From IMG/VR virus record IMGVR_UViG_3300032087_005679, positions 1-64,000 of that record: a stretch of DNA of 64,000 bases; one strand, 5' to 3'. How positions within the stretch are numbered: the stretch's first letter is position 1; each line of letters starts with the position of its first letter. The stretch is from a virus. Positions 4,147 through 58,734 of the stretch are shown here, one piece after another. Below the pieces are notes generated by a model, which worked only from the letters and a program-made list of their open reading frames with translations, was not told where the DNA came from and did no database searches. Made by a program: the position numbers and the translations under genes.

Positions 4147-5343
4147 TCACATGTCTAAGTTTAACTTAAACGTGAAACTATCAATTTCTTTTTTTAACAC
4201 TGGGTTTGCTAATTTAGCTACACCTATCAAATTTTTATCTTCGTCAAAAATTCCTATCTTAGTTATGAAAACTTGTTTTTCAAACTCTTTCTCATAGTCA
4301 CAATAGTCGCTTTGTACTGTGTTTTTTATCTCTATGTTGCTTGGCTCTACGTAACCATTTTCCCCTGATGTAATTTGCTGAGTCCAGTGTGATGCTGAGT
4401 ATGCTAGCCATGTTGGGTTCAGAGAATTGTTCGCTTCGCCAGCTTGAGCGGTTGCAAACATTGTCATAGTTGGGATTTTATGATGACCCTCAAATTCTAA
4501 CGAATAAAGACTTGCTGTTGCAGCAGATACATTATTGGCATACTGTAGCCATGTAGGAGGCTCTAAATCACCAGACCCTACGTAATCGTCTAGATTGTCC
4601 CCATATTCAGAAATTGCAGCAGATGATGTTAGCAAAATAAAACCTTCATTATACAAAACAACACCAACCGTTGAGCCGCTTGTTGGTCCAAGTGTTGAGA
4701 CTAATTCTCCATTTTGTTTATGATCTGTGGCTTGCCCTATCAAGGTACCAGTGTAGTAAAATTTTAAATCAACTGTTCCTTTTTCAATCCCGTCCGAGTA
4801 AAACACAGAAGGAACCTGAAGCATATTAACAGCACCAGTAACATAACTTCCAGTATATGCGTAACTATCGCTTATGTAGCGATAGTAGTCCATTGTGTTT
4901 TTTAGGGAAATAAGTCCACGGCGAGCATCCGCATATTCGTCTAATTGCTGTTCATAAACACTAACGCTTTCGCCAAGCACTGGTAGTTCTAATGGTTCTA
5001 TATAGTTCCTACTGATCGAAGAGGTCATTGGATAATAACCGTCGATTTGAGAACCTACAGATAAATCATTATAAGCAGATCCAGTAACAGTATTGGAACC
5101 AAGATTTATTGTATTATTATAGCCATCTTTAATGATAAAGGGCTTTATAAGCTGTTGATTTACTCCGTCTCTATCAACGTTATACTCAAATAGACTAACA
5201 GATCCTGTTGGGATATTTCTCCCCAAATCTCTCTCTTTGTTTAGGTATGTTTCACCTTCATACATAATAAGTTCATATGATGGCTTAGCCACCATACGAT
5301 TTATCAATATATCGTTTGGACCAAATAAATGAAGGTAGGACAT
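4147..5343 (-). CDS. Virion tail/baseplate structural protein (paralogue of 5356..6432)
   Basis: C-terminal FITKIGIFDEDKNLIGVAKLANPVLK motif shared with neighbour; GVVLYNEG motif; context. Confidence 0.65.
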   Translation of the reverse strand: MSYLHLFGPNDILINRMVAKPSYELIMYEGETYLNKERDLGRNIPTGSVSLFEYNVDRDGVNQQLIKPFIIKDGYNNTINLGSNTVTGSAYNDLSVGSQIDGYYPMTSSISRNYIEPLELPVLGESVSVYEQQLDEYADARRGLISLKNTMDYYRYISDSYAYTGSYVTGAVNMLQVPSVFYSDGIEKGTVDLKFYYTGTLIGQATDHKQNGELVSTLGPTSGSTVGVVLYNEGFILLTSSAAISEYGDNLDDYVGSGDLEPPTWLQYANNVSAATASLYSLEFEGHHKIPTMTMFATAQAGEANNSLNPTWLAYSASHWTQQITSGENGYVEPSNIEIKNTVQSDYCDYEKEFEKQVFITKIGIFDEDKNLIGVAKLANPVLKKEIDSFTFKLNLDM

Positions 5344-5355
5344 TTATACCCCCTT

Positions 5356-6432
5356 CTAGTAATCGTTCCTAACTCTTAGTATTAGCTCGCCGGAAGGTGT
5401 CTTCTTGATTGGCTCACTAAGTTTAGCAACACTTAGCAAAGCATTGTCTTCACTGTATAGACCAACCGTGGTTATGTATGACACAGGATTGTCAGCAGCA
5501 ACTTCTTTTACCCTCATCTTACTAGCGCTTAGATAAGTTGGGTTACTACTAAAGTTAAAGTCACCGTTGTTTAGCCTACAGAAGTAAATTGTAGAGTTAA
5601 GTTCTGTCGTATTATTGAAAGTAACGTTCTGCATTCTATGCCTGAAGGCATCACAGGCACCACTAATACTACTACTAACCAAAAGCGGAAGGGGTAGTAG
5701 ACCACCAGAGGTCATCTCACAGTCCTCTACAAAGTCGCTCAAGAAAACAGAAGCTGTAAGAACAGCAACACCAGCTTGATAAAAGAGTAGACCGCAAGGT
5801 TTTGGAGAGGCTGTTGGGAATCCTGAACCTGTTGCGTATAGGACATTGTATTCTCCGGCAGGAGAATTGGTAAAATATCCGTTTGGACCGTCTTTATCAT
5901 AAACAGTTAGGGTTTTGCCAAAAGGATTAGCATATGAGGCGCTAACTCCAAGAGTTAGTGTAAAACCATCCGCTTGTTTCTGGATTTCGTCCTTTGTCAG
6001 GAGTCTTGCAAAATTCATTGCAAACACTTCATTCATATTGTCTAGCACAATACCACTAGAAAAGTTACCACTAACGTTAAGACGATTGATACTTCCAGTA
6101 CTATCGTATCCAGCTAGAATTTGAGACAACTCATTGTAGATATCATTCTTTTGCTCTCTCATGTCAATGACCAGAGATCCAGATAGAAGCGAATCAGTCA
6201 CCCAGCCTGCTGTTAGGTCAATAATATGATTTGCAGAGGAACTTAAGTATGGATAATCATAAACACTCTGGAACATTCCGTGAGTGTAGTTCTTGATGTT
6301 TTCTTCGTTTGGATGGGCTCCAGCATATGTGCCAGAAACAATAGTACCTGTAATTGGGACAGACTCGTGAAGTTTTGTCCTTGTATAGGTAATATCAGTA
6401 TTTGAGTTTAGTGTTTTAAAACTAGTTGCCAT
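5356..6432 (-). CDS. Virion tail/baseplate structural protein (paralogue of 4147..5343)
   Basis: C-terminal YITTVGLYSEDNALLSVAKLSEPIKK; GLLFYQAG; FNFSSNPTY. Confidence 0.65.
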   Translation of the reverse strand: MATSFKTLNSNTDITYTRTKLHESVPITGTIVSGTYAGAHPNEENIKNYTHGMFQSVYDYPYLSSSANHIIDLTAGWVTDSLLSGSLVIDMREQKNDIYNELSQILAGYDSTGSINRLNVSGNFSSGIVLDNMNEVFAMNFARLLTKDEIQKQADGFTLTLGVSASYANPFGKTLTVYDKDGPNGYFTNSPAGEYNVLYATGSGFPTASPKPCGLLFYQAGVAVLTASVFLSDFVEDCEMTSGGLLPLPLLVSSSISGACDAFRHRMQNVTFNNTTELNSTIYFCRLNNGDFNFSSNPTYLSASKMRVKEVAADNPVSYITTVGLYSEDNALLSVAKLSEPIKKTPSGELILRVRNDY

Positions 6433-6444
6433 AATTATTTCCCG

Positions 6445-15288: not shown

Positions 15289-18200
15289 TTATTCATTGTC
15301 GGAAAGCTTAACATTTTTAGCAATAGCTTCTATCTGGTTTACCAAACTTGTCTCCTGAGTGACTGTTAGAGAAGATCTGAGTTCCTCCTCTTGATATTCT
15401 TTATCAAGCTCAGGTCTAAATCCAACCTTTGCATTTATTTTTGCCAACTCAATCAAAGAACAATAATCATAAGGCCAGTTATAAGTTGGACTATCTAATG
15501 AATGTTTCTGTATGTAAACTTGTTTTGAGAACTCATCACGATCACCAAGGATTTTTTCTATCTCTTGTGTTGGAAGACCCTGAAGACTCATTAGCTCTTT
15601 AGAATTATCATACCCTAAAGCGTTTGGTCCATCAACTTCTTCAGCAATCAACTGCTCGTAACTAGTAATACCTCGTTGCTTCACCTTGAACACTAACCAT
15701 CTGATTTCTGGCACAAAACCATCAGAGCACTTTTCAGCTATATCTAATAGATCATATCGTGGGTGACCATCACGAACAACCCCAAGTTTGATTTGTTCTC
15801 TAAGAACCTCAGGGAATTGAGTTGTTTTTTCATCTATATTGTCCCCTGGCATATAATGATCTATCGCAGAATAACTAAAAGCTATCTTTCTTGATATGTC
15901 TGGCATTACATTTTGCCATATATCAGCCAAATCTTGTTTTGACAAAGAAACCTTGTGTTCCATCAAATACACAACAGGTGTTTGCAATAAGTCACTACCT
16001 TTTAAAGCTTCATCGTATTCATCTGGTCCAAATGGATTTATAACATCTGGAACCTGTGGGTAGCCTTTTGGAACTAGTCCTAACAACTTATATGACAATG
16101 AAGGTGGCAAAGAATACTTTGTAAAGTTTTTACGGAATTCTTTAATTTTTGGACCTAGCTTATTTGCGGGGGCTTGAACATTTACTAATCGAGGTGAGCC
16201 GGCATCATCCAAGTAGAATGGAAGCGCAAGTATTGCTTCTGAAATAGAATTTTCACCATCATCAGCAAGCTGTCCTAACCTCTTTGCTTTCTTGGGGTCG
16301 AAACCTTTTCTCATAATCTCTTTTGGGTCAAAACCACACAAGTCTGCAAGTGACTCAACAGTTCTGCCAGAATCAATCACATATTTTGGTGTTTTCTTGA
16401 CGTAGTGATACGATCCTGAGAAGTCTGTGTAGGGAACAGGCTTTGTCCCAGTTGTTACAAAAGATCTAGCAACAAGATCATATTCTTCATGCTCTCCTGT
16501 GGGAATATCTTTTATGTACAGATAGACACCATTATCTTCTTGAGGTTCAACTCCATATTGGTGCCACATTCCCTGTGTTGTTTGGGTATACTCCCCTGGT
16601 GTTACAGATGAAGAAAAGTCATAACTTGTATCACTTACAGGTCTATTTGGGAAATCTAAAATTGGACTTTCCCATTTTGTCATGATAGTCCACTTGTTTG
16701 GATCTGATGATTTATATTTGTTTCCATTGCCTGTTTCAAATTCATTATTGATGAATATAGATGCATCAATATCCATTCTGTTTAGCCACGCACGATTCCA
16801 TCCATATCCTGGCATAACGGAGGATGTAATCTCTGCCCCTGTTGAATCAACAAAAGACCCAGAACTTATATCGTAATAACTTCCACTCTCATTGATAAAA
16901 TCAACGAACACTTCCCCTCTGTCATTATTAATAATTTCATCCAAAGTATATTCTTCTTTAGTTCCGTTTGGCATAAATGTTATTCTCACTACAGACGGTC
17001 CATAGTAATATGGCGCAGTAAAGGGAGCGAACTCGCCACGGTGTCTAGGCCATGCGGGATGGTTTGGAACAAAACTACCACTAGCCTTTAGTGTATCCCA
17101 AGTGTTTATCTGAGCGTGTGTAAAAGTAGCTGGCCCAAAGGCATGTGGGTTGCTATACAAATTAAACTGATCTGTTTTTATTAGACCAATTTCCATCATA
17201 TATGCTGAGTTCGAATCAACTGAAACTTTTCTCTCTGGAGAACTAGCCTCTTGAGATCCCTTTGGAGCAGAGCCAAACTGAGATACAAATTTTGTTAGTT
17301 TTCCATCATGACCATATCTGTTGCTCTTATTTTTCAGGAAAAAGTGGGGGACATTAGCTAAGAAATTTGATATTGACTTTTTATAAAGAAAAGTATCTGT
17401 CAAAGCAGATGGCTCAATAGATGCGCTAGCATAAACATATTGCCAATAATCTGTACTATCATTTGAAATAATAGGTGAAAAAGATCCCGTAGAAAGATAG
17501 TTTTCTGGTGCTAAAATCGAATCAAATGGTAAACGGTCGCCATAAAACAAAGCTTTGTTTATAGTTCCTTCATCATCAGATCCAAAATTCATATTCTGCA
17601 ATCTTCTTGAATTGCTTGGCAGCAATCCATTACTAGCTATATTATCATCAAGTGCTAGGATCTCTTCATAAGTTAACGCATACAAGCCGCCATTATATAG
17701 CGGAGAACCCATCTTGGACAATTCCTTGTTAGTAAATCGATTAAATATCTCAGGATTTATTAGAGCCCAAGAAAGTGGATAGTCCCTATCTGCCCTTCTT
17801 ACTGGGTAATCAACAGCTACACCCGATTTAATTGAGTTATAAAGAATCCCAGGAGAAAAGAAGGGTCTCAACACTGTTCTCAATGCTCTTCTTTCGCCCG
17901 CATTAGTGCCCTCAAATTGAAAGGAGCTTGAGTATGATTCAGAAAAATGTGTTGCTATTTGAAGCGTTCTATTTACTGGGTAAAAGCCTTCGTATGGCAA
18001 CAGTTTAACAATCGCATCGCTGCTAATCTCAAACTGTCTAGGAAAATTATTGAAGATATAATTTTTATCTGATTTGTCAAATGACATAAAGTCTTCTAAA
18101 AATTGCATTTGATCTGTAGTTGCATATCGATCATAAAAGCCAGTACTGGTGCTGTCATATATGTCCCTGCTAGCACCTGTTAACTCTAGTGACGACTCAA

Positions 18201-43766: not shown

Positions 43767-43772
43767 TCTATC

Positions 43773-44444
43773 TTATCCTAAAACAACATTTTTAGTCATG
43801 ATGACTGGTTCGAACTGAGGGTGTTTATTTGTTAGTTTCCAGTTTTTACTTTGTTCTATAAACTCATCTATCGCAACATTTACACCTTGTTTGTCTTCTG
43901 AGTTTTCTAAATCGACAAACATATGCTTCACATGTTCATGTGTACTTTCTTCACTATAAAAGGCATCTTTTCCTGCGTGCTTACCATTATAATCATCAGC
44001 AAAACAGATTGCTTTTTCTTCTGTTATTTTATCAAAAAACTTTAATTCTTGAGACACTGTTGAATAATTGTGATCCCCATCTAGCAAGATACAATCAAAC
44101 TTTATACCTTGTTTTTCCAGTTCAGGTAAATAATTTAAGCTGTTCTCAATTACATAATAATAATTTGGATTTTTACTATTTGTATGTATCTTGTTTTCAA
44201 AACAAAATGCAGGTCGAACTCCATTCAAGAATTGCAGTTGTGTCTTGAATGTCTCATCCTCACGAACATCAACTCCAACAAAGATAAAGTTTATACCCAA
44301 AGTTGTCAAGTTACTCAATAGAGGCATAGCTGTCTGGGCTTTATCAACACCAATTTCCAATATTTTAACTGGTCTCGATGGATTTTCTTTATAGACTGCC
44401 TTACAAAATTCAGTCATCGTATTGACATATCCTAAATATGACAT
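43773..44444 (-). CDS. Class I SAM-dependent methyltransferase (Methyltransf_24-like)
   Basis: ILEIGV, FDCILLDGDHNY, ADDY, GVNVAIDEF; start reassigned to ATG 44444 just after upstream TAA. Confidence 0.82.
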   Translation of the reverse strand: MSYLGYVNTMTEFCKAVYKENPSRPVKILEIGVDKAQTAMPLLSNLTTLGINFIFVGVDVREDETFKTQLQFLNGVRPAFCFENKIHTNSKNPNYYYVIENSLNYLPELEKQGIKFDCILLDGDHNYSTVSQELKFFDKITEEKAICFADDYNGKHAGKDAFYSEESTHEHVKHMFVDLENSEDKQGVNVAIDEFIEQSKNWKLTNKHPQFEPVIMTKNVVLG

Positions 44445-44445
44445 T

Positions 44446-46439: not shown

Positions 46440-47361
46440 CTGATCTGTTCCCCATATTCATGGAATTATAATTATCTACCAGTGATTTGGTAATACTCTC
46501 CACTGTCTCTTCAAATTCAAAATCAAACTCTTTTTCAAATTTTTCGGGGTTTATCAAAAAATCATACGCTTTTGCTTGAAGCTTAACATTTGTTATAATT
46601 TCTGGTGGTTTGTCGGATATAACCAATTCAGCACCTGTTACTTTAGCTACCCCAGATGCAATATCTTTGGCATTTGAATTAAAAGAAGCCAGGTTATACA
46701 TCCCTTTGTTAGACTCATTACCTTTTTCTATGATTGTTTTAACCGCTCGACATAAGTCAGAAATACCAAGTATTGGTCGATTGACTTCTGGATTGAAACA
46801 AAATATCTTTTTGTTTTCTATCGCATTATAGGTCATAGCATTAATCATAATATCGTTTCTCAAGTTAGGAGAATATCCGTTGACAGTTCCAAACCTAAGT
46901 CCAAAATAAGTCTTACTTGACAATTCTGCATATGAGTCTATTTCATGCTTAGATAAATCATAAAAGTTATTTGGCTTAAACTTTGAATAAGATTCATCTA
47001 CCACTCTGGTACCAGTGTCACCATAAACAGAGGAACTACTTGCATATATAAACAATTGTTTGTCATCGATCTTACCTAGTAGTTCGGCAAAATTTACCAC
47101 GTTATTTCTTAGTGTTGACATCATATTATTTTCGCACATTTTTACACTAGAATGCCCGGCTAAAAGAATAACAACACTTTTATCAATCAAGTCTCCATCA
47201 TTTATGGAGTTCATATCCTTGTCTAGATTATTAGGATTACAAAAGTTACCAAACCATTCAGTGTCAATAGTTGACACATCATACTCTTCCTTGAGGTGAT
47301 TATATAAACGAGTACCAATGTACCCACAACCACCAATTATTAGAACCTTCTTTTTTACCAT
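46414..47361 (-). CDS. NAD-dependent epimerase/dehydratase
   Basis: IGGCGYIG, ASSSSVYG, YDLSK, LRFGTVNGYSP. Confidence 0.88.
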   Translation of the reverse strand: MVKKKVLIIGGCGYIGTRLYNHLKEEYDVSTIDTEWFGNFCNPNNLDKDMNSINDGDLIDKSVVILLAGHSSVKMCENNMMSTLRNNVVNFAELLGKIDDKQLFIYASSSSVYGDTGTRVVDESYSKFKPNNFYDLSKHEIDSYAELSSKTYFGLRFGTVNGYSPNLRNDIMINAMTYNAIENKKIFCFNPEVNRPILGISDLCRAVKTIIEKGNESNKGMYNLASFNSNAKDIASGVAKVTGAELVISDKPPEIITNVKLQAKAYDFLINPEKFEKEFDFEFEETVESITKSLVDNYNSMNMGNRSDARIYRSK

Positions 47362-47663
47362 ATCCTGTGGCGACCTCTTAATATTTCATAAAACATGATC
47401 CAATCACATGCCTTAGCTTTTAACGTGGTCCAGCCGTAATCTTTTTTACCTTCCCATGCTAAAGGTTTGTTTTTTTCGAAAACGCCATGAGCGACCCAAG
47501 CAAAAGGATAAACAACTAAAGGAATGAGCGGGAATAAAAACCAGTACCAATTATACACTACTGTAAAAGTAAATGCAATTGTAAACAACTGACCTAAGAA
47601 GTGTAATAGTTTACACTTTGGGTGTTGATGTAGTGTTAGATAAAATTCGTAGTATTCTTTCAT
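47355..47663 (-). CDS. DUF962/Mpo1-like small membrane protein
   Basis: FYLTLHQHP..LHFLG, FAWVAHGVFEKNKP; AAGGAG SD. Confidence 0.8.
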   Translation of the reverse strand: MKEYYEFYLTLHQHPKCKLLHFLGQLFTIAFTFTVVYNWYWFLFPLIPLVVYPFAWVAHGVFEKNKPLAWEGKKDYGWTTLKAKACDWIMFYEILRGRHRIW

Positions 47664-47679
47664 ATTTTGTCTCCTTACA

Positions 47680-48609
47680 TTAGTTTTGATATTTATTATC
47701 TATCTTAACTAATGGGAAAACTTTCAAAAGCTCATCAATACCATCTTCAACTGTAATAGTAGTTTCAAAACCTAAGGAATTAATTTTATCATACGAAACA
47801 ACATAGTTTCTCTTATCAACATCTCCATCGAAGTCAGCATAATGTACATAACATTCTGTTCTAGACTGAATTAGATCACAAACATCTCTCTTGGAATAAT
47901 TCATGGAATTTGACCCGACGTTATAAACCTCACCACTCATCTTATCAGAATTGTTTACAGCGAACTCAAACACTCTTGCAATATCTCTAACATGTATAAA
48001 AGTTCTCATAAAATGAGATTCATAAATAACTATGTATTTTTGAGTGTGTGCCAAGTAAGATAAATCATTTACAAGCAAATCTAATCGTAATCTTGGACTT
48101 ACACCAAAAGCGGTAGCAAAACGAAAGGCGCTGCTGTTTTCATATTTCATCACCTCTTGTTCACCAAGAGTCTTACTTATACCATAAATACTCAAGGGAT
48201 TTAGTGGTGTTTCTTCAGTACATACGTCTTCAACTGCTCCATAGTTTGAACCTGTAGAACCATAAACTAAAAACTGTTTACCATCCAAACAAGAAATAAC
48301 ATTTTTAGTACCCTGGTGATTTACTGCGTGGGCTAATTCCTCATCTCTGCGACAAGCAGCATAGCCTACAATAGCTGCAAGGTGTATGATAATGTCCTGT
48401 CCTTCTGTTGCTTTTTTTAATTCATCAACATCAAGTATATCACCCTTGATGAATCTAAAGTTGGGTTCACCAAAATTATGAATAAGCCCACTACCATCAA
48501 CAGTCAAGTTATCATATACAGTAACTTGATGACCGTTCTTCAACAACAAAGGGACTAATGTTGTGCCGATATAACCAGCACCACCAGTCACAAGTATCTT
48601 TTTACTCAT
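47680..48609 (-). CDS. NAD-dependent epimerase/dehydratase
   Basis: TGGAGYIG, HLAAIVG, YGISK, RFATAFGVSPRLRLDLLVN; start 48609 has GGAG SD (alternative 48621). Confidence 0.9.
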   Translation of the reverse strand: MSKKILVTGGAGYIGTTLVPLLLKNGHQVTVYDNLTVDGSGLIHNFGEPNFRFIKGDILDVDELKKATEGQDIIIHLAAIVGYAACRRDEELAHAVNHQGTKNVISCLDGKQFLVYGSTGSNYGAVEDVCTEETPLNPLSIYGISKTLGEQEVMKYENSSAFRFATAFGVSPRLRLDLLVNDLSYLAHTQKYIVIYESHFMRTFIHVRDIARVFEFAVNNSDKMSGEVYNVGSNSMNYSKRDVCDLIQSRTECYVHYADFDGDVDKRNYVVSYDKINSLGFETTITVEDGIDELLKVFPLVKIDNKYQN

Positions 48610-48657
48610 TTTTTTCTCCATATCAAATATAAATTATAATTTTTGTTTCGTAAAGAT

Positions 48658-49575
48658 CTAAAGATTTTCTTTATAAAAGTCAACTGTGTTCCTGATACCC
48701 TCTTTATGGTCGTAAAAAGAAAAGTCAGGAAACTTTTCCCGGAACAATTCTGTCGATAGAATTTTTACGGGATCGCCGTCTGGATACTGGGTGTCAAATA
48801 CTAACTCTCCTTCAAAACCGCAAGCCTCTTGGATAAGAAGTGCTGATTCCTTAATTGAGTATCCCTTAGCTTGACCTACATTTACAGGGTATTCGAGATG
48901 ATCTATATCCATAGCTCGGATTAGTACCTCTACGAAATCATCAACGTAAGCCCACTCTCTAACAGGATTGCCAGTCCCCCAAACAACAAACTCGCCATCT
49001 CCAGCTTGTTGTGCTTTTAGCATTCTTATAACCATACCATTCAAGGCATGAGTCTTAGTTGGATCGAGGGAATCCCCAGGTCCGTATGTGTTAGGTAGTA
49101 GCAAATTTACAGTTTTTACCCCATATTGATTGTAATAACATTGAGATAGGTAATAAATTGCTCTTTTAGAATTACCAAAAGAAAAAACCGAATCGTGAAC
49201 TCCTCCATCGAGCCAGTTCTCTTCTAATTGAATTGAACTATCTCCAGGGTACGAACAGTTGGAAAACGGTTGAATTATTTTTATCTCAGGATTATAATCT
49301 AGCACCGCCTTGTAAACATTCAAATTCATCTGAAGGTTATCACCATATACGTCAGCAGCATACTTTCTAACATACATCATACTGCCACCATGAGATGCAA
49401 GGTTATAAATCAGGTCAGGATTTTCTTTTTCCAAAAAATTTCTAAAGGATTGGTAATCTAAAAGATCAAGACCTAAAGTCTTGGACGTCCTTGATACAGT
49501 ATGCCCGTCACTAACAAGACGATCATATACTTTTTCACCAATAAAACCAGTACCACCAAGTACTAAAATCTTCAT
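48658..49575 (-). CDS. Second GDP-L-fucose synthase-like SDR (YxxxK changed to FxxxK)
   Basis: GGTGFIG, SNCSYP, PNTYGPGD, HAL, VWGTGNPVREW; start reassigned to ATG 49575. Confidence 0.78.
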   Translation of the reverse strand: MKILVLGGTGFIGEKVYDRLVSDGHTVSRTSKTLGLDLLDYQSFRNFLEKENPDLIYNLASHGGSMMYVRKYAADVYGDNLQMNLNVYKAVLDYNPEIKIIQPFSNCSYPGDSSIQLEENWLDGGVHDSVFSFGNSKRAIYYLSQCYYNQYGVKTVNLLLPNTYGPGDSLDPTKTHALNGMVIRMLKAQQAGDGEFVVWGTGNPVREWAYVDDFVEVLIRAMDIDHLEYPVNVGQAKGYSIKESALLIQEACGFEGELVFDTQYPDGDPVKILSTELFREKFPDFSFYDHKEGIRNTVDFYKENL

Positions 49576-49576
49576 T

Positions 49577-50260
49577 CTATTCTCCAGAGTATTTGAAAGT
49601 GTAGCCATGGATCCTTATTTTGGGTCCATATCCATTATAATAAGTTGATTTTATGATTTTGTCTAGTTCTTCTTTTGAAATATCAATATCAATATTTTCC
49701 AATTTGTCAATATCTCTTATTCGCCCTGTTTTTTTGCCCCACTCATCCGTATTTTCAGAAGATATTCTAGACAACTCTTTAGGTCCTTGAACTGTTATCG
49801 TGTGTATTATATTTGAAAAAGAATCAAATTGACATCTGTGAACCTTCTCTAATAAGCTTTCTACATTATCTTCATCTTCTATGACTACTCTGTAAACATT
49901 TATTATGGGTCCATTGTCAACATTCTTATTCATATAGTGAACTGTTACCCCAGTTTCAGCGTCTTCGTTATATAAAGCCCAATTTATACCACCAGACCCT
50001 GGGTACTTGGGGTGTGATGGGTGAAAGTTTATAGCTGCAATACTAGCCTTATTTATGAACTGTTCTGGCAAGATACAATAAGACTTATAATGAAATATAT
50101 AATCTCCACTCCACTCTTCAATTTCTTTCGGTATTTTACTGCCTCTTTTTTTTGATGCTTTCCAGAAGGTTGTTTCAAAACCTTTTGACACAAGAAGGTC
50201 TACAGCGTTGTTGCTGTATCGACAATCTTCAAAGCCTATAAATAGTGCTTTGCTAGTCAT
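49577..50260 (-). CDS. Formyltransferase (sugar N-formyltransferase-like)
   Basis: AINFHPS.PKYPG, TGVTVHYM..VDNGPII; start reassigned to ATG 50260. Confidence 0.85.
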   Translation of the reverse strand: MTSKALFIGFEDCRYSNNAVDLLVSKGFETTFWKASKKRGSKIPKEIEEWSGDYIFHYKSYCILPEQFINKASIAAINFHPSHPKYPGSGGINWALYNEDAETGVTVHYMNKNVDNGPIINVYRVVIEDEDNVESLLEKVHRCQFDSFSNIIHTITVQGPKELSRISSENTDEWGKKTGRIRDIDKLENIDIDISKEELDKIIKSTYYNGYGPKIRIHGYTFKYSGE

Positions 50261-50846
50261 TCTTAAACACATCCATTTGAGATAGATCAGGCCAGTCAGT
50301 ATAGACCCACTCCTTTGGTTTAGTAATCTTTGCGTTAGGTAGTTTCTTGAGACCAAGCTCTGCCGTTTCTGGTGTCATATAGTAATGATAACCTATGGTC
50401 TTAATATTCTGAACTGACCAGGAAAGATCTGGACTTCTTCCATCATAAGACATTCTTTTCAAGGTGTCATACTCTTCCTTGTTATCAAATAAAATAACCC
50501 CACCCCTGCCAAGGCTTAAGTGTTTTCGAAATTGAAAACTGATACACATATATGTCCCTGGAATGTAGCTATTTTCTTTCCAGTGAACGGCGGCGTCGAT
50601 AATGTTTTCTGTTAGATAATAATAATCTTTCCACTTTTCATCGGTCCATTCTAGTCCTATGCTTAGTTTATCTGCCAACATAGGCACAGACAAATAAGTG
50701 TGTCTTGGTACTTTTATTTTACTTGTGCCCTTCATGCGTAAACATAATTCTAATCCATGTGTGCAACAATCAACAGCAACCGCATAAGGTGCCCCAAAAA
50801 AATTAGCTATCTCATTTTCAAAATCTTTTATTGCTTGAAATGACAT
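50253..50846 (-). CDS. DegT/DnrJ/EryC1/StrS-family PLP aminotransferase, short form
   Basis: FENEIA..GAPYAVAV..CT.GL, IIDAA, SFQFRKHL..GRGG, GYHYYM; only 197 aa. Confidence 0.82.
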   Translation of the reverse strand: MSFQAIKDFENEIANFFGAPYAVAVDCCTHGLELCLRMKGTSKIKVPRHTYLSVPMLADKLSIGLEWTDEKWKDYYYLTENIIDAAVHWKENSYIPGTYMCISFQFRKHLSLGRGGVILFDNKEEYDTLKRMSYDGRSPDLSWSVQNIKTIGYHYYMTPETAELGLKKLPNAKITKPKEWVYTDWPDLSQMDVFKND

Positions 50847-51784
50847 TATGAATCTCCAATCTTGTTTATAAGATGTTGTGCCATACGTTCCCAGGTATAT
50901 TTTTGTGATGCTATCTCAAAAGCATTTTCAATTATTTTATTCCTAGCATCATCATTAGATAAGTAATATTCAAGTTTTTCATCAAAATCTGACAGGTCAT
51001 TCTCAAACAAAACGCAATTTTCTCCATCTACAAAAACATTCTCATATTCATACGGCATGTTGTTACAGAACAATAAAGTCTTTGATAGCATGACCTCAAA
51101 ATACCTTGGACTTACATCATTATTTGGTCCTGTAGTAGCAAGCCAAATCTTGCTTTCTCTCATTATTTTAGCGTATTCTTCAACGGAAGAAATTCTATAA
51201 CTAAGGTCCCCCTCTTTACTAGAGTTCCAGAAAACATTGTACTTAGTTTTTTCTAACCTTTCATGCACTCGATCTCTAAGATTCATGGTTGGTCCAGGAA
51301 TCTTTCCTCCACCATGAGAAGCGCCACTAAAACCAAAATCATACTTTTTATTTTCAAAAGACGGATAGAATACATCTGGATTAGCTGTGAACCAAAACCT
51401 TATCGGGACCGAGTTTGTTATTTCTCCGTACTCTTTGTAGGTTATATTCGTATCCATAAGAATGCTGATATTATTAACTTTACAAAATTGTAATTTTTCT
51501 TGCAACATTGTCTGAGGTTTATGTAACATACAAACAACTGGAATGCCTACGTCTTTCAATCCTTTGATCTCTTTATAAACATCTGGGTTTGTTTGTGTAA
51601 AATATCCTAAACCAAAAATAATACAATCAATATTACTGTTTTTGATTGTCTCAAAATTATGAACTCTGTTTTGAAATAGGTGTACGGTTGCCTTCTTTTT
51701 CAATTCTCGGTATAGATCACCATAATATTGATACATATAGTTATCAGCAACTGTATTGCCATGATCTATGTATAAGATATTCAC
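50846..51784 (-). CDS. Glycosyltransferase, CgeB/Glyco_trans_1_2-like
   Basis: YDFGFSG, EYAKIMRESKI, SPRYFE, IIENA...KYTW; GTG start. Confidence 0.8.
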   Translation of the reverse strand: MNILYIDHGNTVADNYMYQYYGDLYRELKKKATVHLFQNRVHNFETIKNSNIDCIIFGLGYFTQTNPDVYKEIKGLKDVGIPVVCMLHKPQTMLQEKLQFCKVNNISILMDTNITYKEYGEITNSVPIRFWFTANPDVFYPSFENKKYDFGFSGASHGGGKIPGPTMNLRDRVHERLEKTKYNVFWNSSKEGDLSYRISSVEEYAKIMRESKIWLATTGPNNDVSPRYFEVMLSKTLLFCNNMPYEYENVFVDGENCVLFENDLSDFDEKLEYYLSNDDARNKIIENAFEIASQKYTWERMAQHLINKIGDS

Positions 51785-52683
51785 TTAGAATTATCCTTTA
51801 CTCCTGGGGCATAATCACAAAGATGACGTAGAGCACCTTGACTGTGGTATCCTTCGTCTACAGTTTTTAGATCATATATGTTGTCCCCATGGTGTATGAG
51901 GTAAAACAAACTGTTTACGTCATTATCCCCCCATCTATACTTGTAAATGCCACCATATTGATTCACAGCGTTGATCCACTGTTTCCATTCAGGCGTTTCA
52001 AACATAGAAATCTTAACAACATATGAATCGGCACAAGGATAGAAATGAAAGTTTTTATCAGCCTCTGGATCTGATAATAAATTTTTCATAAACTGGGATT
52101 TTGGCTCAACGTTATAATGTTTCAAATAGCCTTTTACAAACTTCCAAAGATTGATTCTGGTATCAAAGTTTCCCTGGTGAGGTAGTTTCTTTGTTTGATC
52201 ATACACCTTCAAAGCACCCATCGGCTCAACTTGATTCTTCATAACCTCAAATGGATCGTAAGTCATAGGCTTGATAAACATAGATTCATCATCTACACTC
52301 ATTGTATAATCATATTTTTCAAATTCAGTATTCGGGTAACCATAATAATTTGACATAAAGTGACACATGTGTAGGTACCCCTTACGAGATATTGGGAATT
52401 GTGTTCTTGAATACCATAAATCATTTCTATTATAAAAAAGATCCTCCTCTTTTATATGTTTTGGTGTTTCATAGGGAATAGAAACAAAATTTACATTCTG
52501 AGGTGTTTGACTTCTAACAGATTGTCTGAATTCTTCTGAATCGTAAATATCGTCAAAGTAATAAACATACACAGGATAGTTGTGTTTGTGGTTGTAGTTT
52601 TCCCAAAGAGCTTTTAAGCTATGTGGTATACATGCTTTCCTAGAAGAAATATAGGTTATACAGGCTTTTAATTTATCGCTCAT
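51781..52683 (-). CDS. GT15-like alpha-1,2-mannosyltransferase (Kre2/Mnt1 family)
   Basis: NYPVY, GYLHMCHF, YDY..VD, YDPFEVM, GGIYKYRWGD. Confidence 0.75.
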   Translation of the reverse strand: MSDKLKACITYISSRKACIPHSLKALWENYNHKHNYPVYVYYFDDIYDSEEFRQSVRSQTPQNVNFVSIPYETPKHIKEEDLFYNRNDLWYSRTQFPISRKGYLHMCHFMSNYYGYPNTEFEKYDYTMSVDDESMFIKPMTYDPFEVMKNQVEPMGALKVYDQTKKLPHQGNFDTRINLWKFVKGYLKHYNVEPKSQFMKNLLSDPEADKNFHFYPCADSYVVKISMFETPEWKQWINAVNQYGGIYKYRWGDNDVNSLFYLIHHGDNIYDLKTVDEGYHSQGALRHLCDYAPGVKDNSK

Positions 52684-53689
52684 AATATTTTACTCCTGCG
52701 TTTGTGTATATGTCCGATATCAATGATAGGCAGTTTTCTGATTCTGTTATCATAAAACTGTCAAGATTACTGTATAATTCAGGGTGGTTAGGACAAGAAC
52801 CTCTGTAGTTACCATAAGAATTTGACTCCTTAGGGTTTTCCAGTAATTTTATCTTTTCTTTATATTGTTTCTCTGTTTCTTTATCAATAAATTCTGACTT
52901 TGTAACTTTATCAAGCGCCTTACCACCAAGTTCAATATAGCCATTCTCAGCTAAAATAGATATAGTGCATTCTATGTTGGTTGGTTCACTTGCTATAGTT
53001 ACTTCGATAGTTCCACCAAAACTTCCAAAGTCAACTAAAGAATATACTGTGTCCTCAATTGAGTAGTCAACGTGTTTCGTATTATACAACAATGAAGACT
53101 GAACTTTTGGCTTGCCAAAAAGATAGCACATGATATCTAAGTAATGAATTCCACATTCATGCAAAGTCCCACCACCAACTTCTGGGATACCCCGCCAATT
53201 TTGAAAATACTCCTTTGGTCTTTGCCATCTTTGAGTGAGACTAATTCCTCTTATTTTTCCAAGTAAATTGGTTTCTAGTAATTCTTTCGTAAAAGAAACT
53301 ACTGGATTAAGCCTCACTTGTAAAACACAGTGAGCTTTCTGGCTGTTCGCATCCGCAATTGTTTTTAGTTCTTGTATCAAGTTGTGATCTAAGCACGCTG
53401 GTTTTTCTACCAAAACATCACAACTGTTTTCTAGACAGTATTTTGCTTGAGAATAATGTAATGAGTTAGGGGTTGCAATGACTACAAAATTTATATCTTC
53501 TTTAGATAACATATCTTTATAATCAACATACCCGCTTACACCTCTTTTTGACGCCTCTAGATCTACAATGTTTTGATCTAAGTCACACAAAGATACTAGT
53601 TCAAAATTTTTATTTCTATCTATAGCTTCCAGGTGTCTGACAAGGATTTTACCACACCCAATTATACCTACCTTATACTCTGCTTTCAT
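52673..53689 (-). CDS. Gfo/Idh/MocA oxidoreductase (WbpB/WlbA-like nucleotide-sugar dehydrogenase)
   Basis: IIGCGKI, IATPN..H, VLVEKP, VLQVRLNP, WQRP, GGTL..GIHYLD. Confidence 0.85.
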   Translation of the reverse strand: MKAEYKVGIIGCGKILVRHLEAIDRNKNFELVSLCDLDQNIVDLEASKRGVSGYVDYKDMLSKEDINFVVIATPNSLHYSQAKYCLENSCDVLVEKPACLDHNLIQELKTIADANSQKAHCVLQVRLNPVVSFTKELLETNLLGKIRGISLTQRWQRPKEYFQNWRGIPEVGGGTLHECGIHYLDIMCYLFGKPKVQSSLLYNTKHVDYSIEDTVYSLVDFGSFGGTIEVTIASEPTNIECTISILAENGYIELGGKALDKVTKSEFIDKETEKQYKEKIKLLENPKESNSYGNYRGSCPNHPELYSNLDSFMITESENCLSLISDIYTNAGVKYYER

Positions 53690-54575
53690 ATGTTTTCTCC
53701 AGGAAAGAGTGGTATAACTCTGCCGTGTCCTTTATATTACAACTATATTTTGTTTTGTTTAATACAGTCCTTGAAAAATCAAGAGTTGGTGGATTGTATA
53801 ATTCAACTGGCTTGAAATCCCAATCTTCTTCCTCAACAACAATTGCATTATCGCCAGCGATCTCTTTTGTTCCGCCAGCACTAGAGCATATAATCTGACA
53901 CCCTGAAGCATAAGCATCTACCACAACATTAGGACAATGATCTAACCATGCTAGGTGTAGGAAATATTTTGAAGCTTTATATACAGAGTATAGTTGTTGC
54001 TGAGAAAGGTTACCAAAATAAGCAACCTTTTTGTCTTCTATTTTATCTTCTGGATTTACATTTCCAGCAACAACAAGTAGATCTTTCTCCCCAGAGTGCT
54101 CTAAAAAATATCTAATATTGTCTTTCAGTCTCTTATGGGGTCTCCAAGAGGAAGCACAACACCATACATTCTCATACACGTCATTCTTCATAGCTGGAGT
54201 TTTTTTGATAGATTCTAGATCCGCTCCATTGTGAATTACAGTAGAGTTCTTGTGTTTACCAAAATACCTTTCTATCAATTCTTTGTTGAATTCCGATTGG
54301 TATACTACACCTTCACACATTTGATATGTTCTTAGGATATTCTGGTTTTGCAGATTATAGTTCTGTGCTGTATTGAAGTAAATCCCATCTAGCCTTAGCA
54401 CTTGAGGTATATTGAGTTTTTGCCTTGGTGATTCAATAAAACACAACGAAAGATCTGCGTCTGAAATGTTTGTTATCTCATAGCCAAGATTTACTAGATT
54501 TGGGACTATCTTTTTTGCAAAAGAATTTGGTCCACTAGAACTGTTGAGGTTGACATTCTCTAAATGTAGCTTCAT
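53673..54575 (-). CDS. Glycosyltransferase family 4 (GT-B)
   Basis: LRLDG, VIHNG, RPHKRL, DHCPNVVVDA, AGGTKEI. Confidence 0.85.
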   Translation of the reverse strand: MKLHLENVNLNSSSGPNSFAKKIVPNLVNLGYEITNISDADLSLCFIESPRQKLNIPQVLRLDGIYFNTAQNYNLQNQNILRTYQMCEGVVYQSEFNKELIERYFGKHKNSTVIHNGADLESIKKTPAMKNDVYENVWCCASSWRPHKRLKDNIRYFLEHSGEKDLLVVAGNVNPEDKIEDKKVAYFGNLSQQQLYSVYKASKYFLHLAWLDHCPNVVVDAYASGCQIICSSAGGTKEIAGDNAIVVEEEDWDFKPVELYNPPTLDFSRTVLNKTKYSCNIKDTAELYHSFLEKTYESRV

Positions 54576-54576
54576 A

Positions 54577-56190
54577 TTATAACTTATTATACTTTTGTTT
54601 TTGTCTTATTTCAAGCATATAATCGTGTTGTTTCTTTGCTTTAGTTTTATTCACAGCGTTAGGATTTGACACGTTATAAACGTATGTTACTTCGGGGATG
54701 TATTTTGATCTTTTCCCAGCCATTTCTAAAAGAGGAAGCATCATAGCTTGATCGTAAGAAATCTCATAAAAGTTACCTTCTTTATTTAAAAGGTCTTCCT
54801 TCTTCACTTTATTCCACAGGTGAAATTTAAATGTTTTCAAATGAGATGCACGCCAAACATCTTCTCTAAAACCATTTGATTCTATGACTTCTTGAGGGTA
54901 CTCGCTGGCTTCTTGCCCTATGCCACCATCTGGGAATCTAGCAAAACTACCATAAGTCATTAGACAGTCTTCATTCATATAGTAATGATTAAGTTGAGAC
55001 AACACATTTTGATTAGGGAACCAATCGTCGCCGTCCAAGACCACTATAACATCTTCAGGATCAGGATTTGATTCAGCGATCATGTCATAGATGTTCTTAA
55101 GGGCATATTTCTTTTCTTCACCCCTTGATATGAAAAACTTGCTATTATCTGAAAAGTTGCTAGCTAATTCAAATGTTTTATCAGTTGATATATCGTCCCC
55201 CACATAACATTCAAAGTTATCATATTCTTGTTCTTTTACACTTTCTAGAGACTTTTCAATCCAATTTTCAGCATTGTATACTGGGACTATTACTTTGAAG
55301 TTTGTTTTCTTTTCCTCTTCAAAGTTTTGAGAAACCCTTTCACCCATAGATTTATAAACTGTTTTCCAAAAAAATGGTGCCCTAGATTCTAGATACTCAA
55401 TTGTTGACTCTCTATCTCCCAAAAACCATTCTTCATTTTTGTGTTGCACGTTTTCGTTGAGAATCAATTCACAACCAAGAAGCTTTGCTTCAATCACTGT
55501 TCTAGGACACGTATCAGAACCTTCTGGTAGAAATATAAAACCTTTTGATTGTGAGAATTTCTTTAGCATCTCTTGATAACTAACCCCCGAAAATGTCTCA
55601 AAAGGTAAGTTATTTTTCTTTGCGTATTCAACTGATTTTGAAGAACCTTTTACCCAGGATGGAGAATCTTGTATCAGCCAAACGTCTTTTTTGTTCTGGT
55701 TCTGTAGTGAATTTATGTGCTCTAAAGTTTGTTTACTAAAAATTGAACTCAAAACATAAGTTGAATCCTTTTTTAGAAAAGGAAAGAGATCATAATAAAT
55801 ATCTCTTTGCGCCGCCGACATAAACCACAAATTTTTTGCTCTCTCAAAAAGGATAGAGAACAATTTTCCTCGTGTTGTATTTTCACATTCACACTTACCT
55901 TCTGCCGCTATGTGTTTTTCTCGTAATCGGTAAGAACAAAACTTATAATCATATTCAATCACAGAATATTCTAAATTTTTACAAGCATACAAAAGAATAT
56001 CATTGGACATACCAGCACAGTTGCCAAAGATCCAGTACCTATCTTTATAAGTATCAATAATTTGCTTTGTTAGCTGATGAGATCTTACACATGCCACGGG
56101 TAGTTTTGTGCCATCTATGATAGCTTGTGTTGTTAGTTCGCCACCACCAACATAGTCATCAACAAATAAATCTTGTACGAAAATAATCAT
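54577..56190 (-). CDS. Bifunctional glycosyltransferase (GT-B-like N-terminal plus GT2 C-terminal)
   Basis: N-terminal GGGE..WVKG..DTCPRTVIEAKLLGC; C-terminal IVPVYNAE..SVKEQ..DDISTD..LDGDD. Confidence 0.85.
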   Translation of the reverse strand: MIIFVQDLFVDDYVGGGELTTQAIIDGTKLPVACVRSHQLTKQIIDTYKDRYWIFGNCAGMSNDILLYACKNLEYSVIEYDYKFCSYRLREKHIAAEGKCECENTTRGKLFSILFERAKNLWFMSAAQRDIYYDLFPFLKKDSTYVLSSIFSKQTLEHINSLQNQNKKDVWLIQDSPSWVKGSSKSVEYAKKNNLPFETFSGVSYQEMLKKFSQSKGFIFLPEGSDTCPRTVIEAKLLGCELILNENVQHKNEEWFLGDRESTIEYLESRAPFFWKTVYKSMGERVSQNFEEEKKTNFKVIVPVYNAENWIEKSLESVKEQEYDNFECYVGDDISTDKTFELASNFSDNSKFFISRGEEKKYALKNIYDMIAESNPDPEDVIVVLDGDDWFPNQNVLSQLNHYYMNEDCLMTYGSFARFPDGGIGQEASEYPQEVIESNGFREDVWRASHLKTFKFHLWNKVKKEDLLNKEGNFYEISYDQAMMLPLLEMAGKRSKYIPEVTYVYNVSNPNAVNKTKAKKQHDYMLEIRQKQKYNKL

Positions 56191-56191
56191 T

Positions 56192-57466
56192 TTATTCTGG
56201 ACTTGTCAAAGAAGCAAACATTTTTGCGATCTCGTCATCTGTCTCGGACGTATCAAGATACGACATAAAAATGTCTTGATATTTTTGATGTATCTTATCT
56301 TCACTAAATTCTTTTATTAGGTGCTCTTGTAGCCCTTTTGCACGAATTTTTCTGAAATTAGTATTCGTATACACCTCTCTCATTTTCTTTTTGAAACTTT
56401 TCTCTTCTGGATAACACCACTGAGACTCTTGTGTAACTACTTTGTCCCAAACAACTTCTTTTGGAACTTGACCTATGGTGAATTTAACCTTCTCAAAAAG
56501 TGGCTGCATTGTTACTTTTTTTGATTTAGGATTCTCTACAGGTGCATACAAGAAATCATTCTGTCCCGACCAAGCAGGTGCAATTACAGGCAATCCCGAA
56601 TAAGCAGCCTCAAAAATAGGAAGACCGTAACCTTCTCCATGTGTAGTTGTTATATAACATTTCACACTTGGGTGAGTATAGAGAGCATGGATTTCTGCTT
56701 CGGTCATATCGCCATGCAGAAGGTGAATCTTACACTTACGAGTATCTCCATATTCCTGCATCATCTGTGCTAACATGACCTGGAGCTTTCTTCTATCAAG
56801 AATTGACATATTGAGTTGGTGGGTTTTAATAATCAGACCAACATCTGCATCATTTTTGAACTCTTCTACAAACCACTTAATACAATTGGCAATATTTTTT
56901 CTTGGTCCCCACTGAGCGACTGTTAGAAAGTTATATTTCGTAGAGAACTCTAAAGAAGATACTTTCTCATCTGGTGCTGTGTTTCTCACAGGGTAACCAA
57001 TAATCTCAATGGGTGTATTACAAGTTAGACTTGAGATAGCGCCAGTTTGCTTATTTTGTATTTGATAACTTGTCTTTTCATAAACACTTTTACTATGTTT
57101 TGAAATTGTAATGATCTTGTCCATCAAAGCGCTTTGCTGTAACCAGTGGGGATCAACACGATCTGTCTCTATCCCAGCAGTTATTCCAATATTGACTGGT
57201 GCGGCTTTTTTCCATTCGTTAGGAATTGTCACCTGAATAGATAAGTCAAATTGTGGTGGTGGTGAGGACATTCTGTTTATATCATCCATGATATGTGGTC
57301 CAACTTCTTTCTCTGGTTCAAGGATCCAAGAGCTTTTCCCCCACTCAATGGCAGCAACATACACAGTTACAGAGTCTAGTTTCTTTAGAGCTTTGTAAAC
57401 TAATCGAGCATGTTCGCCATAACCACTCCTAGAGAGAATTGGTGCAACAAGTAGAACGTTTTTCAT
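56192..57466 (-). CDS. Glycosyltransferase family 4 (GT-B)
   Basis: SRSGYG, PRKN, GEGYGLPIFEAAYSGLPVI. Confidence 0.88.
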   Translation of the reverse strand: MKNVLLVAPILSRSGYGEHARLVYKALKKLDSVTVYVAAIEWGKSSWILEPEKEVGPHIMDDINRMSSPPPQFDLSIQVTIPNEWKKAAPVNIGITAGIETDRVDPHWLQQSALMDKIITISKHSKSVYEKTSYQIQNKQTGAISSLTCNTPIEIIGYPVRNTAPDEKVSSLEFSTKYNFLTVAQWGPRKNIANCIKWFVEEFKNDADVGLIIKTHQLNMSILDRRKLQVMLAQMMQEYGDTRKCKIHLLHGDMTEAEIHALYTHPSVKCYITTTHGEGYGLPIFEAAYSGLPVIAPAWSGQNDFLYAPVENPKSKKVTMQPLFEKVKFTIGQVPKEVVWDKVVTQESQWCYPEEKSFKKKMREVYTNTNFRKIRAKGLQEHLIKEFSEDKIHQKYQDIFMSYLDTSETDDEIAKMFASLTSPE

Positions 57467-58734
57467 ATTTCAAATTTCTCCCAGCGAGTATAATTTTTTC
57501 TATCAGACCATGAACCTAGTCGTTCATGTAAACCTTGGAGGTAGTCAACCCAAAACTTCTTGTAATTCTCAAAGGAGTAGTTCTTCTCAACATGTTCCCT
57601 TCCTGCATCTCCAAGTTTTTGTCTTTCTTCGTCAGACATTTCATATATTTTAGTAAGCGCATCAACAACTGCTTCTTCTGATAACCTGTCCTCGTAAATA
57701 TAAGGTACCTGTTGAGATCCGATGATCGCTTTAGATACTGGTTCAATACCTACACCGAACCAATTTTCTCCGTCGGTTACTTGTTCTTGTAAGCCGCCAG
57801 TCATAGTATTGATAACAGGTTTACTACAAGATAAAGCTTCAAGAGAACTTAGTCCAAAACCTTCAGCATCTGCAATATTTAGAACACAATCTGCAAGATT
57901 ATAAAGCTTAGATAAATCGTCAGGAAGAAGCTTTTGTTTTGAGAATATCAATTGTCCCTGGTTTAGACCCAAAGTATTGGCTAAGAATTCTAGCGGTTGT
58001 CCGTGTGGGTCATTTGTATCTGTATGCATTATTAGCGCCGCTTTATCATGACCGACCTTATCAAGGAATGCTTTAAACCAATATACTAAAGAACCGCTTT
58101 GTTTTCTTCTTGCATTTCTGTTATTCCAAAAGAAGACGACTTTGTCCTCAAGGGACATTCTTTTTCTTAATTCGTTTATTTGGCTTATAGATTCTTTATC
58201 TGTTTTTTTCTTGAAAATAGCAGGATCAACAGCGTGAGGTAGGTACACCTCCTCAACCTCTGGTGCTGCTTTCTTTACAATTTCACTAGTGACCTTTGAT
58301 ATTGTTACCACAGCATCGTTAGATTCATAAAATGGCTTATTAAACATTGGAGTTGGGAAGTTATCCCAAACATGGTAATAAACCATTGGCACAACTTTTC
58401 TTATCTCTGATTCCATTTGCCATAGCCACTCATAGAACCTTGGATCCGTCATAAACCAGAGTATGTCTGGTTTTTCTTGAAGCAGCAAACTTCTCAACTG
58501 TTGCGGTGTTCCATAGCCATCTACAGGGATTATTTTCCATGATGCTCCGAACTTTTCAATGCCAACTTCCTTGACATTATAATCTGAGTGTTTGATTGCG
58601 CCGCCAAAAGATATAACCTCAAAGTTCCCGCTCTCAAGCAGACCTTCAATCATATATTTTGTTTGTGTAGCAACACCAGATGGTAGTAAAGGATGATCGC
58701 CAATTGTAAATACTTTTATTTTCTTCTTTGACAA
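57463..58734 (-). CDS. Glycosyltransferase family 4 (GT-B)
   Basis: PSGVA, NRNARRK, AEGFGLSSLEALSC; TTG start with GGAG SD. Confidence 0.88.
   Translation of the reverse strand: MSKKKIKVFTIGDHPLLPSGVATQTKYMIEGLLESGNFEVISFGGAIKHSDYNVKEVGIEKFGASWKIIPVDGYGTPQQLRSLLLQEKPDILWFMTDPRFYEWLWQMESEIRKVVPMVYYHVWDNFPTPMFNKPFYESNDAVVTISKVTSEIVKKAAPEVEEVYLPHAVDPAIFKKKTDKESISQINELRKRMSLEDKVVFFWNNRNARRKQSGSLVYWFKAFLDKVGHDKAALIMHTDTNDPHGQPLEFLANTLGLNQGQLIFSKQKLLPDDLSKLYNLADCVLNIADAEGFGLSSLEALSCSKPVINTMTGGLQEQVTDGENWFGVGIEPVSKAIIGSQQVPYIYEDRLSEEAVVDALTKIYEMSDEERQKLGDAGREHVEKNYSFENYKKFWVDYLQGLHERLGSWSDRKNYTRWEKFEI

Follow-up and report, generated by a model that had tools for sequence, protein, structure and literature searches.

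A candidate O-glycosylation sequon on the external tail proteins of an aquatic myovirus lineage

Why would the tail proteins of a phage repeat one short tripeptide many times over, in a genome that also carries a long run of glycan-pathway genes? The question is raised by the first 64 kb of the 74,195-bp viral contig IMGVR_UViG_3300032087_005679 (hereafter the window, 64,000 nucleotides in which all genes lie on the minus strand; CheckV estimates the contig to be ~22% complete). An initial reading made from the letters of the window, here called the sequence-only reading, had counted the tripeptide [ST]-[GAS]-S by hand in eight proteins and had taken it for the acceptor sequon of a glycan-coated tail. 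We analysed the motif and the neighbouring glycosyltransferase (GT) genes in the window and in related phages. The chances appear to us evenly balanced that the motif serves as a sequon by which the tail exterior is O-glycosylated in the cytoplasm, a proposal that rests on the pattern of the sequences. Slightly more tentatively, and a little short of an even chance, we propose that a whole aquatic myovirus lineage, which includes Microcystis phage Mel-JY01, the Flavobacterium immuto phages and thousands of relatives in ocean metagenomes, devotes a virus-specific GT4 enzyme to the O-glycosylation of this sequon, at sites that number from dozens to hundreds and cover the entire outside of the contractile tail (sheath, neck, baseplate and fibres), with an unusual glycan particular to each sub-lineage.

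Firstly, we compared the number of motifs in each protein with the expectation from 2,000 composition-preserving shuffles. The hand counts were all exact (8/8), and the enrichment persists against the shuffles, strongly in four proteins of the window (3–6x, z 5.2–6.1) and only marginally in the 2221-aa protein:

25731..27248, minus strand: 505-aa protein, directly downstream of gp6; 13 motifs versus 2.9 expected, z 6.1.
5356..6432, minus strand: 358-aa protein of a paralogous baseplate/fibre family; 9 motifs versus 1.8 expected, z 5.6.
4147..5343, minus strand: 398-aa paralog of the 358-aa protein; 8 motifs versus 1.3 expected, z 6.1.
21988..25734, minus strand: 1248-aa protein with a weak LamG/ConA-like match; 18 motifs versus 5.5 expected, z 5.2.
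15289..21954, minus strand: 2221-aa structural protein, marginal; 17 motifs versus 9.8 expected, z 2.4, p 0.016.
27248..29044, minus strand: gp6-like inner baseplate wedge, internal control and lineage marker; 0 motifs.

The gp6-like protein, the 2020-aa protein (a single motif), the 1096-aa and 1166-aa proteins and all enzymes of the window have the motif at or below expectation. The 1096-aa (7538-10828; 2 motifs versus 3.4 expected) and 1166-aa (10832-14332; 6 versus 5.6) structural proteins sit unenriched among motif-rich genes and may be distal fibres that were swapped horizontally with phages lacking the system. Two names that the motif-rich proteins had been given need revision. Nothing supports the label 'DNRLRE' for the 505-aa protein, which has no NCBIfam match and contains no such string; the LamG call on the 1248-aa protein corresponds to a weak match (PF13385, E 1e-5), which falls just short of the Pfam cut-off. 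An unbiased scan of all tripeptides in the enriched proteins placed TGS first (18 versus 2.8 expected) and SGS next among the frequent tripeptides; the definition of the motif is thus not cherry-picked. An artefact of composition or low complexity is ruled out by the per-protein shuffles and the dispersed contexts of the sites. The Ser residues of the motif draw on both codon families, and its Gly, Thr and Ala residues on every codon available to them, in roughly background proportions. The signal therefore lies at the amino-acid level, and this use of all synonymous codons rules out an artefact at the DNA level.

Secondly, we established which residues the motif accepts, using 447 distinct proteins encoded downstream of gp6 in ~120 IMG/VR relatives (267,560 residues). 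This pool holds 3,992 sites versus 1,178 expected, with the following enrichment at each position:

Position -1: V, I and L enriched; D, K and R at 0.3–0.4x (Asp 0.4x).
Position 1: S 5.5x and T 5.3x; all others at most 1.3x (A 1.1, G 1.0, N 0.9, D 1.3).
Position 2: G 5.4x, A 2.9x and S 2.2x; not enriched T 0.8, N 0.6, D 0.7.
Position 3: S 5.4x; not enriched T 1.4, N 1.2, D 0.9.
Position +3: L, A, V, I and Y enriched; P 0.2x; E, K and D at 0.4–0.5x.

Hydrophobic residues are favoured and charged ones scarce in both flanks, at -1 and +3, which gives hydrophobic-[ST]-[G>A>S]-S-hydrophobic as the complete motif. This residue pattern resembles a recognition code. It is unlike a generic glycine turn, since Asn, Asp and Gly are rejected at the hydroxyl positions while Ala is accepted in the middle of the motif. 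The sites are isolated, ~1 per 40 residues and inside folded domains, rather than gathered in long low-complexity Ser-rich repeats; their contexts bear out the earlier description of scattered sites with hydrophobic neighbours.

Thirdly, we followed the motif across the lineage. Two scans of IMG/VR with gp6 alignments retrieved loci whose gp6 is 29–71% identical to that of the window. Nearly every locus with enough downstream sequence is enriched, the z of the first set being typically 4–12.7 and the observed/expected ratio of the second 1.9–4.9. Neither gp6, with 0–4 motifs in every relative, nor the 10 kb upstream of it departs from chance. The closest cultured relatives are far off: they are Mel-JY01, on which a literature search found no publications, and the immuto phages (gp6 ~32% identical), and their orthologs display the same enrichment pattern as the window. 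The uncultured 484-kb phage LR756508 is a further relative whose gp6 is likewise ~32% identical. The 358-aa family has at least 8,000 metagenomic homologs, many of them from Tara Oceans and none annotated.

The position of the motif within the virion was assessed by mapping it on all open reading frames (ORFs) of four genomes, namely Mel-JY01, immuto, LR756508 and G024, an IMG/VR relative of 157 kb that is 87% complete. In G024, Mel-JY01 and immuto the motif-rich set consists of the baseplate-distal proteins and the tail sheath, joined in G024 and Mel-JY01 by the gp13-like neck adaptor. The proteome outside this set is at expectation (G024, 64 versus 60.3; Mel-JY01, 126 versus 122.8; immuto, 89 versus 84.7), and portal and terminase are at chance. 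The major capsid proteins (G024 60516-62348; Mel-JY01 24999-26627; immuto 126852-128462) are marginal one by one (z 1.0–2.1) and mildly enriched when pooled (12 versus 5.6 expected); a few capsid sites may also be part of the system. The sheath motifs of three phages fall in the N-terminal/insertion part; in the two sheaths that were mapped, this part holds all of them (11/11 in Mel-JY01, 12/12 in G024), and the conserved C-terminal core, alignable to T4 gp18 residues 465-652, is free of them. This region of gp18 forms the inner layer of the sheath, with the inserted domains projecting outward. Mapped at the level of domains, the motifs sit in outward-facing parts (sheath outer domains, neck and baseplate periphery) and are missing from internal parts, so that burial of the sites, which the sequence-only reading had listed as evidence that would count against a sequon, is not seen at this level. 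Some further motif-rich proteins lie outside the window. In the immuto genome MW353176, the protein at 97614-100775, annotated 'tail spike', has 60 motifs versus 20 expected, and a 373-aa ORF between the neck and sheath genes (135031-136152) has 17 versus 3.0. A 508-aa protein of Mel-JY01 without family match (3065-4591) has 24 versus 7.3. The G024 ortholog of the 1248-aa protein is fused into a protein of 2883 aa with 48 motifs versus 12.1 expected, to the C-terminal part of which the 2221-aa protein of the window is partly homologous.

The motif-rich proteins fall into at least five families without detectable relationship. No BLAST links exist between the families and the hhalign probability between the 505-aa and 358-aa families is 1%, which together rule out a hidden domain common to them. 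The outer sheath domains of G024 and Mel-JY01 are unalignable with each other, yet both are enriched. In the alignment of the 505-aa family, the motif occurs in 114 columns, 50 of which are singletons, while ~11 copies are kept per protein: sites turn over while the density of the motif is kept. According to fold matches, the AlphaFold model of the 505-aa protein (AF2, pLDDT 83) consists of a CBM-like jelly-roll and, after it, Ig/FN3-like beta-sandwiches, with motifs mostly in coil or at strand ends (~9/13 at strand ends by reading of the DSSP string). The 358-aa model is confident only for residues 69-276, and a Foldseek search with it returned no matches; this paralogous family has in common a conserved C-terminal stretch of ~80 aa. 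Over the two models, the sites occupy coil and helix ends as well as the edges and interiors of strands. No solved homologs of either family were found.

We then turned to the genes that could act on such a motif. In the order of transcription, the window encodes a PhoH-like ATPase, a PD-(D/E)XK nuclease, two glycosyltransferases (GT-A and GT-B) and 19 more glycan-pathway ORFs down to position 39613. These are followed by an M23 peptidase, the 2020-aa protein, the gp25-like and gp6-like baseplate wedge genes and the large structural proteins. The M23-peptidase protein (403 aa, 36646-37857) and the 2020-aa protein (29459-35521), upstream of the gp25-like and gp6 genes, are not motif-enriched; the former may be a cell-wall-degrading tail component and the latter a giant hub or tape-measure-like protein. 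The glycan genes and their marker are:

58750..59589, minus strand: PD-(D/E)XK nuclease, synteny marker ahead of GT-A/GT-B.
57463..58734, minus strand: GT-A, virus-specific GT4, conserved, E-x7-E intact; adjoins GT-B and is also found in LR756508.
56192..57466, minus strand: GT-B, virus-specific GT4, conserved, E-x7-E intact; best candidate for a motif-directed transferase.
39613..56190, minus strand: variable part of the glycan cluster (Pfam, NCBIfam), with four further GT domains.

The cluster at 39613-58734 does comprise 21 ORFs, as had been noted; the accompanying figure of at least seven glycosyltransferases did not hold, Pfam supporting six GT domains. The variable part encodes SDR epimerases/dehydratases, a UDP-Glc-dehydrogenase-like gene, a GFO/IDH/MocA oxidoreductase, methyltransferases including a sugar C-methyltransferase, a formyltransferase and a short DegT-like aminotransferase. 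This last ORF (50253-50846), at only 197 aa, covers no more than the central part of the Pfam model; since immuto keeps a form of comparable length (214 aa), it may be a genuine short variant rather than a broken gene. Pfam and NCBIfam searches gave no family assignment for the ORFs 42939-43766 and 44446-45246. Among the 21 ORFs we detected no Pfam match to a Wzx flippase, a Wzy polymerase, an ABC exporter or a polyprenyl-phosphate priming transferase, and hydropathy revealed no multi-pass membrane protein. Few genes of the variable part are common to immuto or Mel-JY01. By contrast, the synteny of the block nuclease-GT-A-GT-B extends over the window, Mel-JY01 and immuto, whose sugar-pathway genes differ; conservation is confined to the start of the cluster, most of which varies between relatives.

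GT-B was found in 14/30 IMG/VR records, among them all those with at least 25 kb of sequence upstream of gp6; the records without it all fall short of this length. G031, the sole 100%-complete IMG/VR genome examined, has GT-B too. It is present in all complete or near-complete motif-rich genomes. A phyletic screen for genes present in G024, Mel-JY01 and immuto and absent from LR756508 retained 4 of the 24 conserved genes: GT-B; a 436-aa protein, perhaps the PhoH-like ATPase, that has a homolog in the window contig; a small neck-adjacent ORF; and one motif-rich paralog, the G024 ortholog of the 398-aa protein of the window. Both GT-A and GT-B keep E-x7-E in all orthologs, and this intact motif rules out that GT-B is a GtfB-like pseudo-enzyme. 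Their sequence clusters are 97-100% viral, with Nucleocytoviricota among the GT-A look-alikes and the chlorovirus GT B736L as a weak PDB match to the GTs of the window. In phmmer comparisons, neither is significantly similar to Gtf1 (PDB 4pqg and 5e9t; E 0.14-0.45). In Mel-JY01, the GT-A ortholog is split into two adjacent ORFs of 190 and 302 aa (83441-84932), and the motif-rich 508-aa protein adjoins a 1234-aa ORF (containing 5293-5655) with a GT1 domain distantly similar to GT-B.

Comparable proteins of phages without GT-B served as controls. T4 gp7–gp12, wac and gp18 are not enriched, and neither are the baseplate proteins of the GT-rich cyanophage S-SCSM1 (~6,200 residues, 22 motifs versus 20.6 expected). 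LR756508, which has GT-A and not GT-B, encodes two 824-aa sheath paralogs (202463-204937 and 205952-208426) with 1 and 0 motifs. The sequence-only reading would have been undermined by equal enrichment in relatives lacking the GTs; T4, S-SCSM1 and the LR756508 sheaths, all without the conserved transferase, are unenriched, which also rules out that baseplate, fibre or sheath proteins carry the motif as a matter of course. A Streptomyces phage with a distant GT-B homolog showed no enrichment either, its homology being too weak to inform. In LR756508, enrichment is highest in a 576-aa ORF (170106-171836; 9 motifs versus 1.6 expected) that lies immediately upstream of the gene for the major capsid protein.

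From these distributions we infer how the system might work. The external tail proteins (sheath outer domains, gp13-like neck, peripheral baseplate and some fibres) would offer many copies of the sequon. In the host cytoplasm, the initial sugar would be attached, most likely by GT-B, to one or other hydroxyl residue of the motif in newly made proteins, and elongation would fall to GT-A together with the lineage-variable GTs. Unusual nucleotide sugars would come from the rest of the cluster and, judging from the enzyme set, could include amino, N-formyl and C-methyl deoxysugars. The outcome would be a glycan-coated tail, whose coat might, for example, act as a shield against proteases, non-specific adsorption or recognition. 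The sequence-only idea of a sequon and a glycan-coated tail thus agrees with the enrichment, the exposure at domain level and the link to GTs, and is narrowed in that the candidate initiators are GT-A and GT-B and not the whole cluster. The residue specificity, the occurrence in unrelated folds, the turnover of sites at constant density and the phyletic profile of GT-B extend it further.

Several observations weigh against this proposal. In the 505-aa family, some sites are conserved in 68–85% of orthologs, which fits a structural role too, some columns keep Gly while the flanking Ser is lost, and some conserved sites lie inside or at the ends of beta-strands. The gp13-like protein of immuto is not motif-enriched, and some baseplate orthologs of LR756508 are weakly enriched, ~2x at low density. 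Homology to GT4 enzymes is silent on the acceptor. Finally, the contrast between GT-B and the motif rests on one GT-B-less genome, LR756508, and an IMG/VR search for similar outgroups found no close relatives of it. The motif and the GT pair do co-occur across relatives, as the sequence-only reading had proposed to check, but both are universal in the lineage, so that their co-occurrence does not discriminate.

The main rival is a structural motif: [ST]-G-S would be a strand-capping or tight-turn element of beta-sandwich decoration domains, the GT cluster would serve another purpose and the co-occurrence with GT-B would reflect shared ancestry. We consider this unlikely, though it is the explanation that we would turn to next. 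The motif-rich proteins are indeed built of beta-rich CBM, LamG and Ig-like modules, the residues at -1 and +3 are hydrophobic, and the strand-end sites of the 505-aa model, the position-conserved sites and the columns in which Gly outlives Ser all speak for a turn element; a correlation between two lineage-universal traits could also be phylogenetic. Such an element should, however, welcome the turn-formers Asn, Asp and Gly, yet positions 1 and 3 refuse them and position 2 admits Ala. It would also have to arise in unrelated families and in both unalignable outer sheath domains, to suit coil, strand edges, strand interiors and helix ends alike despite the high turnover of sites, and to be dispensable in the comparable beta-rich baseplate and sheath proteins of T4, S-SCSM1 and LR756508, which do without it.

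It is clearly less probable still that the glycan cluster, GT-A and GT-B included, modifies the phage DNA or the host surface and that the protein motif arose for unrelated reasons. Arrays of GTs in phages are able to hypermodify DNA (10.1101/2023.12.21.572611), work on cyanophages and on large aquatic phages has ascribed such genes to these roles (PMC12801897, PMC12619734), and GT-A/GT-B adjoin the nuclease and PhoH-like genes, a context of DNA metabolism. Against this, no ThyA-family (dCMP-hydroxymethylase-type) gene was found in Mel-JY01, G024 or G021, and no Tet/JBP match in any genome searched, a search made without positive control and, for the window, on a contig only 22% complete. Moreover, the cluster is without Wzx, Wzy and a lipid-priming gene, the GTs belong to virus-only families and are not host-derived, and the motif would be left unexplained. 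That the motif is instead the recognition site of some other factor (phosphorylation, acylation or similar, or an assembly or chaperone factor), with the GT cluster unrelated, is improbable: any Ser/Thr-directed enzyme would suit the need for hydroxyls at positions 1 and 3, and an assembly factor the restriction to one class of virion proteins, but no kinase or acyltransferase is among the four genes of the phyletic profile and none was seen in the window.

Should the motif prove to be a glycosylation sequon, bacteriophages would have their first described sequon-directed code of protein glycosylation, and contractile tails their first glycan-sheathed example; our literature search turned up neither a dispersed sequon nor sheath or baseplate proteins reported to be glycosylated. 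Sequence alone would then predict the glycan-coated virion surfaces of a very abundant group of ocean and freshwater phages, the puzzling 'LPS-like' (lipopolysaccharide-like) islands of at least this lineage would acquire a function, and the adsorption, stability and recognition of these phages would have to be viewed differently. A new protein-directed GT4 family would be identified, with possible use in the glyco-engineering of folded proteins in the bacterial cytoplasm. The cultured phages Mel-JY01 and immuto make the sequon directly testable. Even if the motif is structural, it provides a five-residue signature of the external tail proteins of this lineage, an annotation tool for proteins that have none.

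How would such a system compare with those already known? Long runs of GT genes in marine phages, such as those of the large T4-like cyanophages P-SSM2, S-SCSM1 and S-SCSM2R, have been read as modifying the host surface or DNA (PMC12801897). The cluster of the window resembles these 'LPS' islands in being a long run of nucleotide-sugar enzymes and many GTs in a marine myovirus; it differs in that the S-SCSM1 baseplate is unenriched and that, in the phage collection searched, no T4-like cyanophage is among the matches of GT-B. As in a lipid-linked O-antigen or capsule pathway, nucleotide-sugar enzymes and several GTs stand in one cluster, but export and priming genes were not found in it. The general O-glycosylation system of Bacteroidetes uses the sequon D-[ST]-[AILVMT] and operates in the periplasm with lipid-linked glycans, a flippase and an oligosaccharyltransferase. 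It offers a likeness in its short three-residue code, in the hydrophobic residue beside the acceptor and in its many unrelated target proteins, whereas the present motif is [ST]-[GAS]-S with Asp depleted at -1, and flippase and oligosaccharyltransferase genes are absent here. Chloroviruses and mimiviruses encode the glycosylation of their own capsids or fibrils. They too make unusual sugars and use cytoplasmic GTs, independently of the host export machinery; their hosts are however eukaryotic, their acceptors differ (atypical N-linked sites, fibril proteins) and the homology shown goes no further than the generic GT4 fold.

Closer to the present case in its virions, glycosylation has been demonstrated in mycobacteriophages (Freeman et al. 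2023, Cell Host Microbe, as summarised in PMC12619734), siphoviruses in which glycans are attached at the C-termini of capsid and tail-tube subunits. There, as would be the case here for a modification predicted from sequence, phage-encoded cytoplasmic GTs modify structural proteins of the phage itself. The summary describes no dispersed sequon for that system, whereas here a pentapeptide is spread over the sheath, neck, baseplate and fibres of myoviruses; the C-terminal capsid and tail-tube acceptors have no match, the capsid being at most marginal, and the GTs belong to unrelated GT4 families. In the way that it would work, the closest analogue is GtfA-GtfB (Gtf1/Gtf2), the O-GlcNAc transferase of the serine-rich-repeat adhesins of streptococci and staphylococci. 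Both comprise a cytoplasmic GT4 pair encoded by adjacent genes, and Ser in S-x-S-type contexts with small residues in between. Unlike the non-catalytic GtfB, GT-A and GT-B both keep E-x7-E, and their similarity to Gtf1 is not significant; unlike the long low-complexity repeats of the adhesins, the candidate acceptors are isolated sites in folded domains with hydrophobic flanks. Hence, the system outlined by these sequences would be virus-encoded virion glycosylation, a known kind, in a new form.

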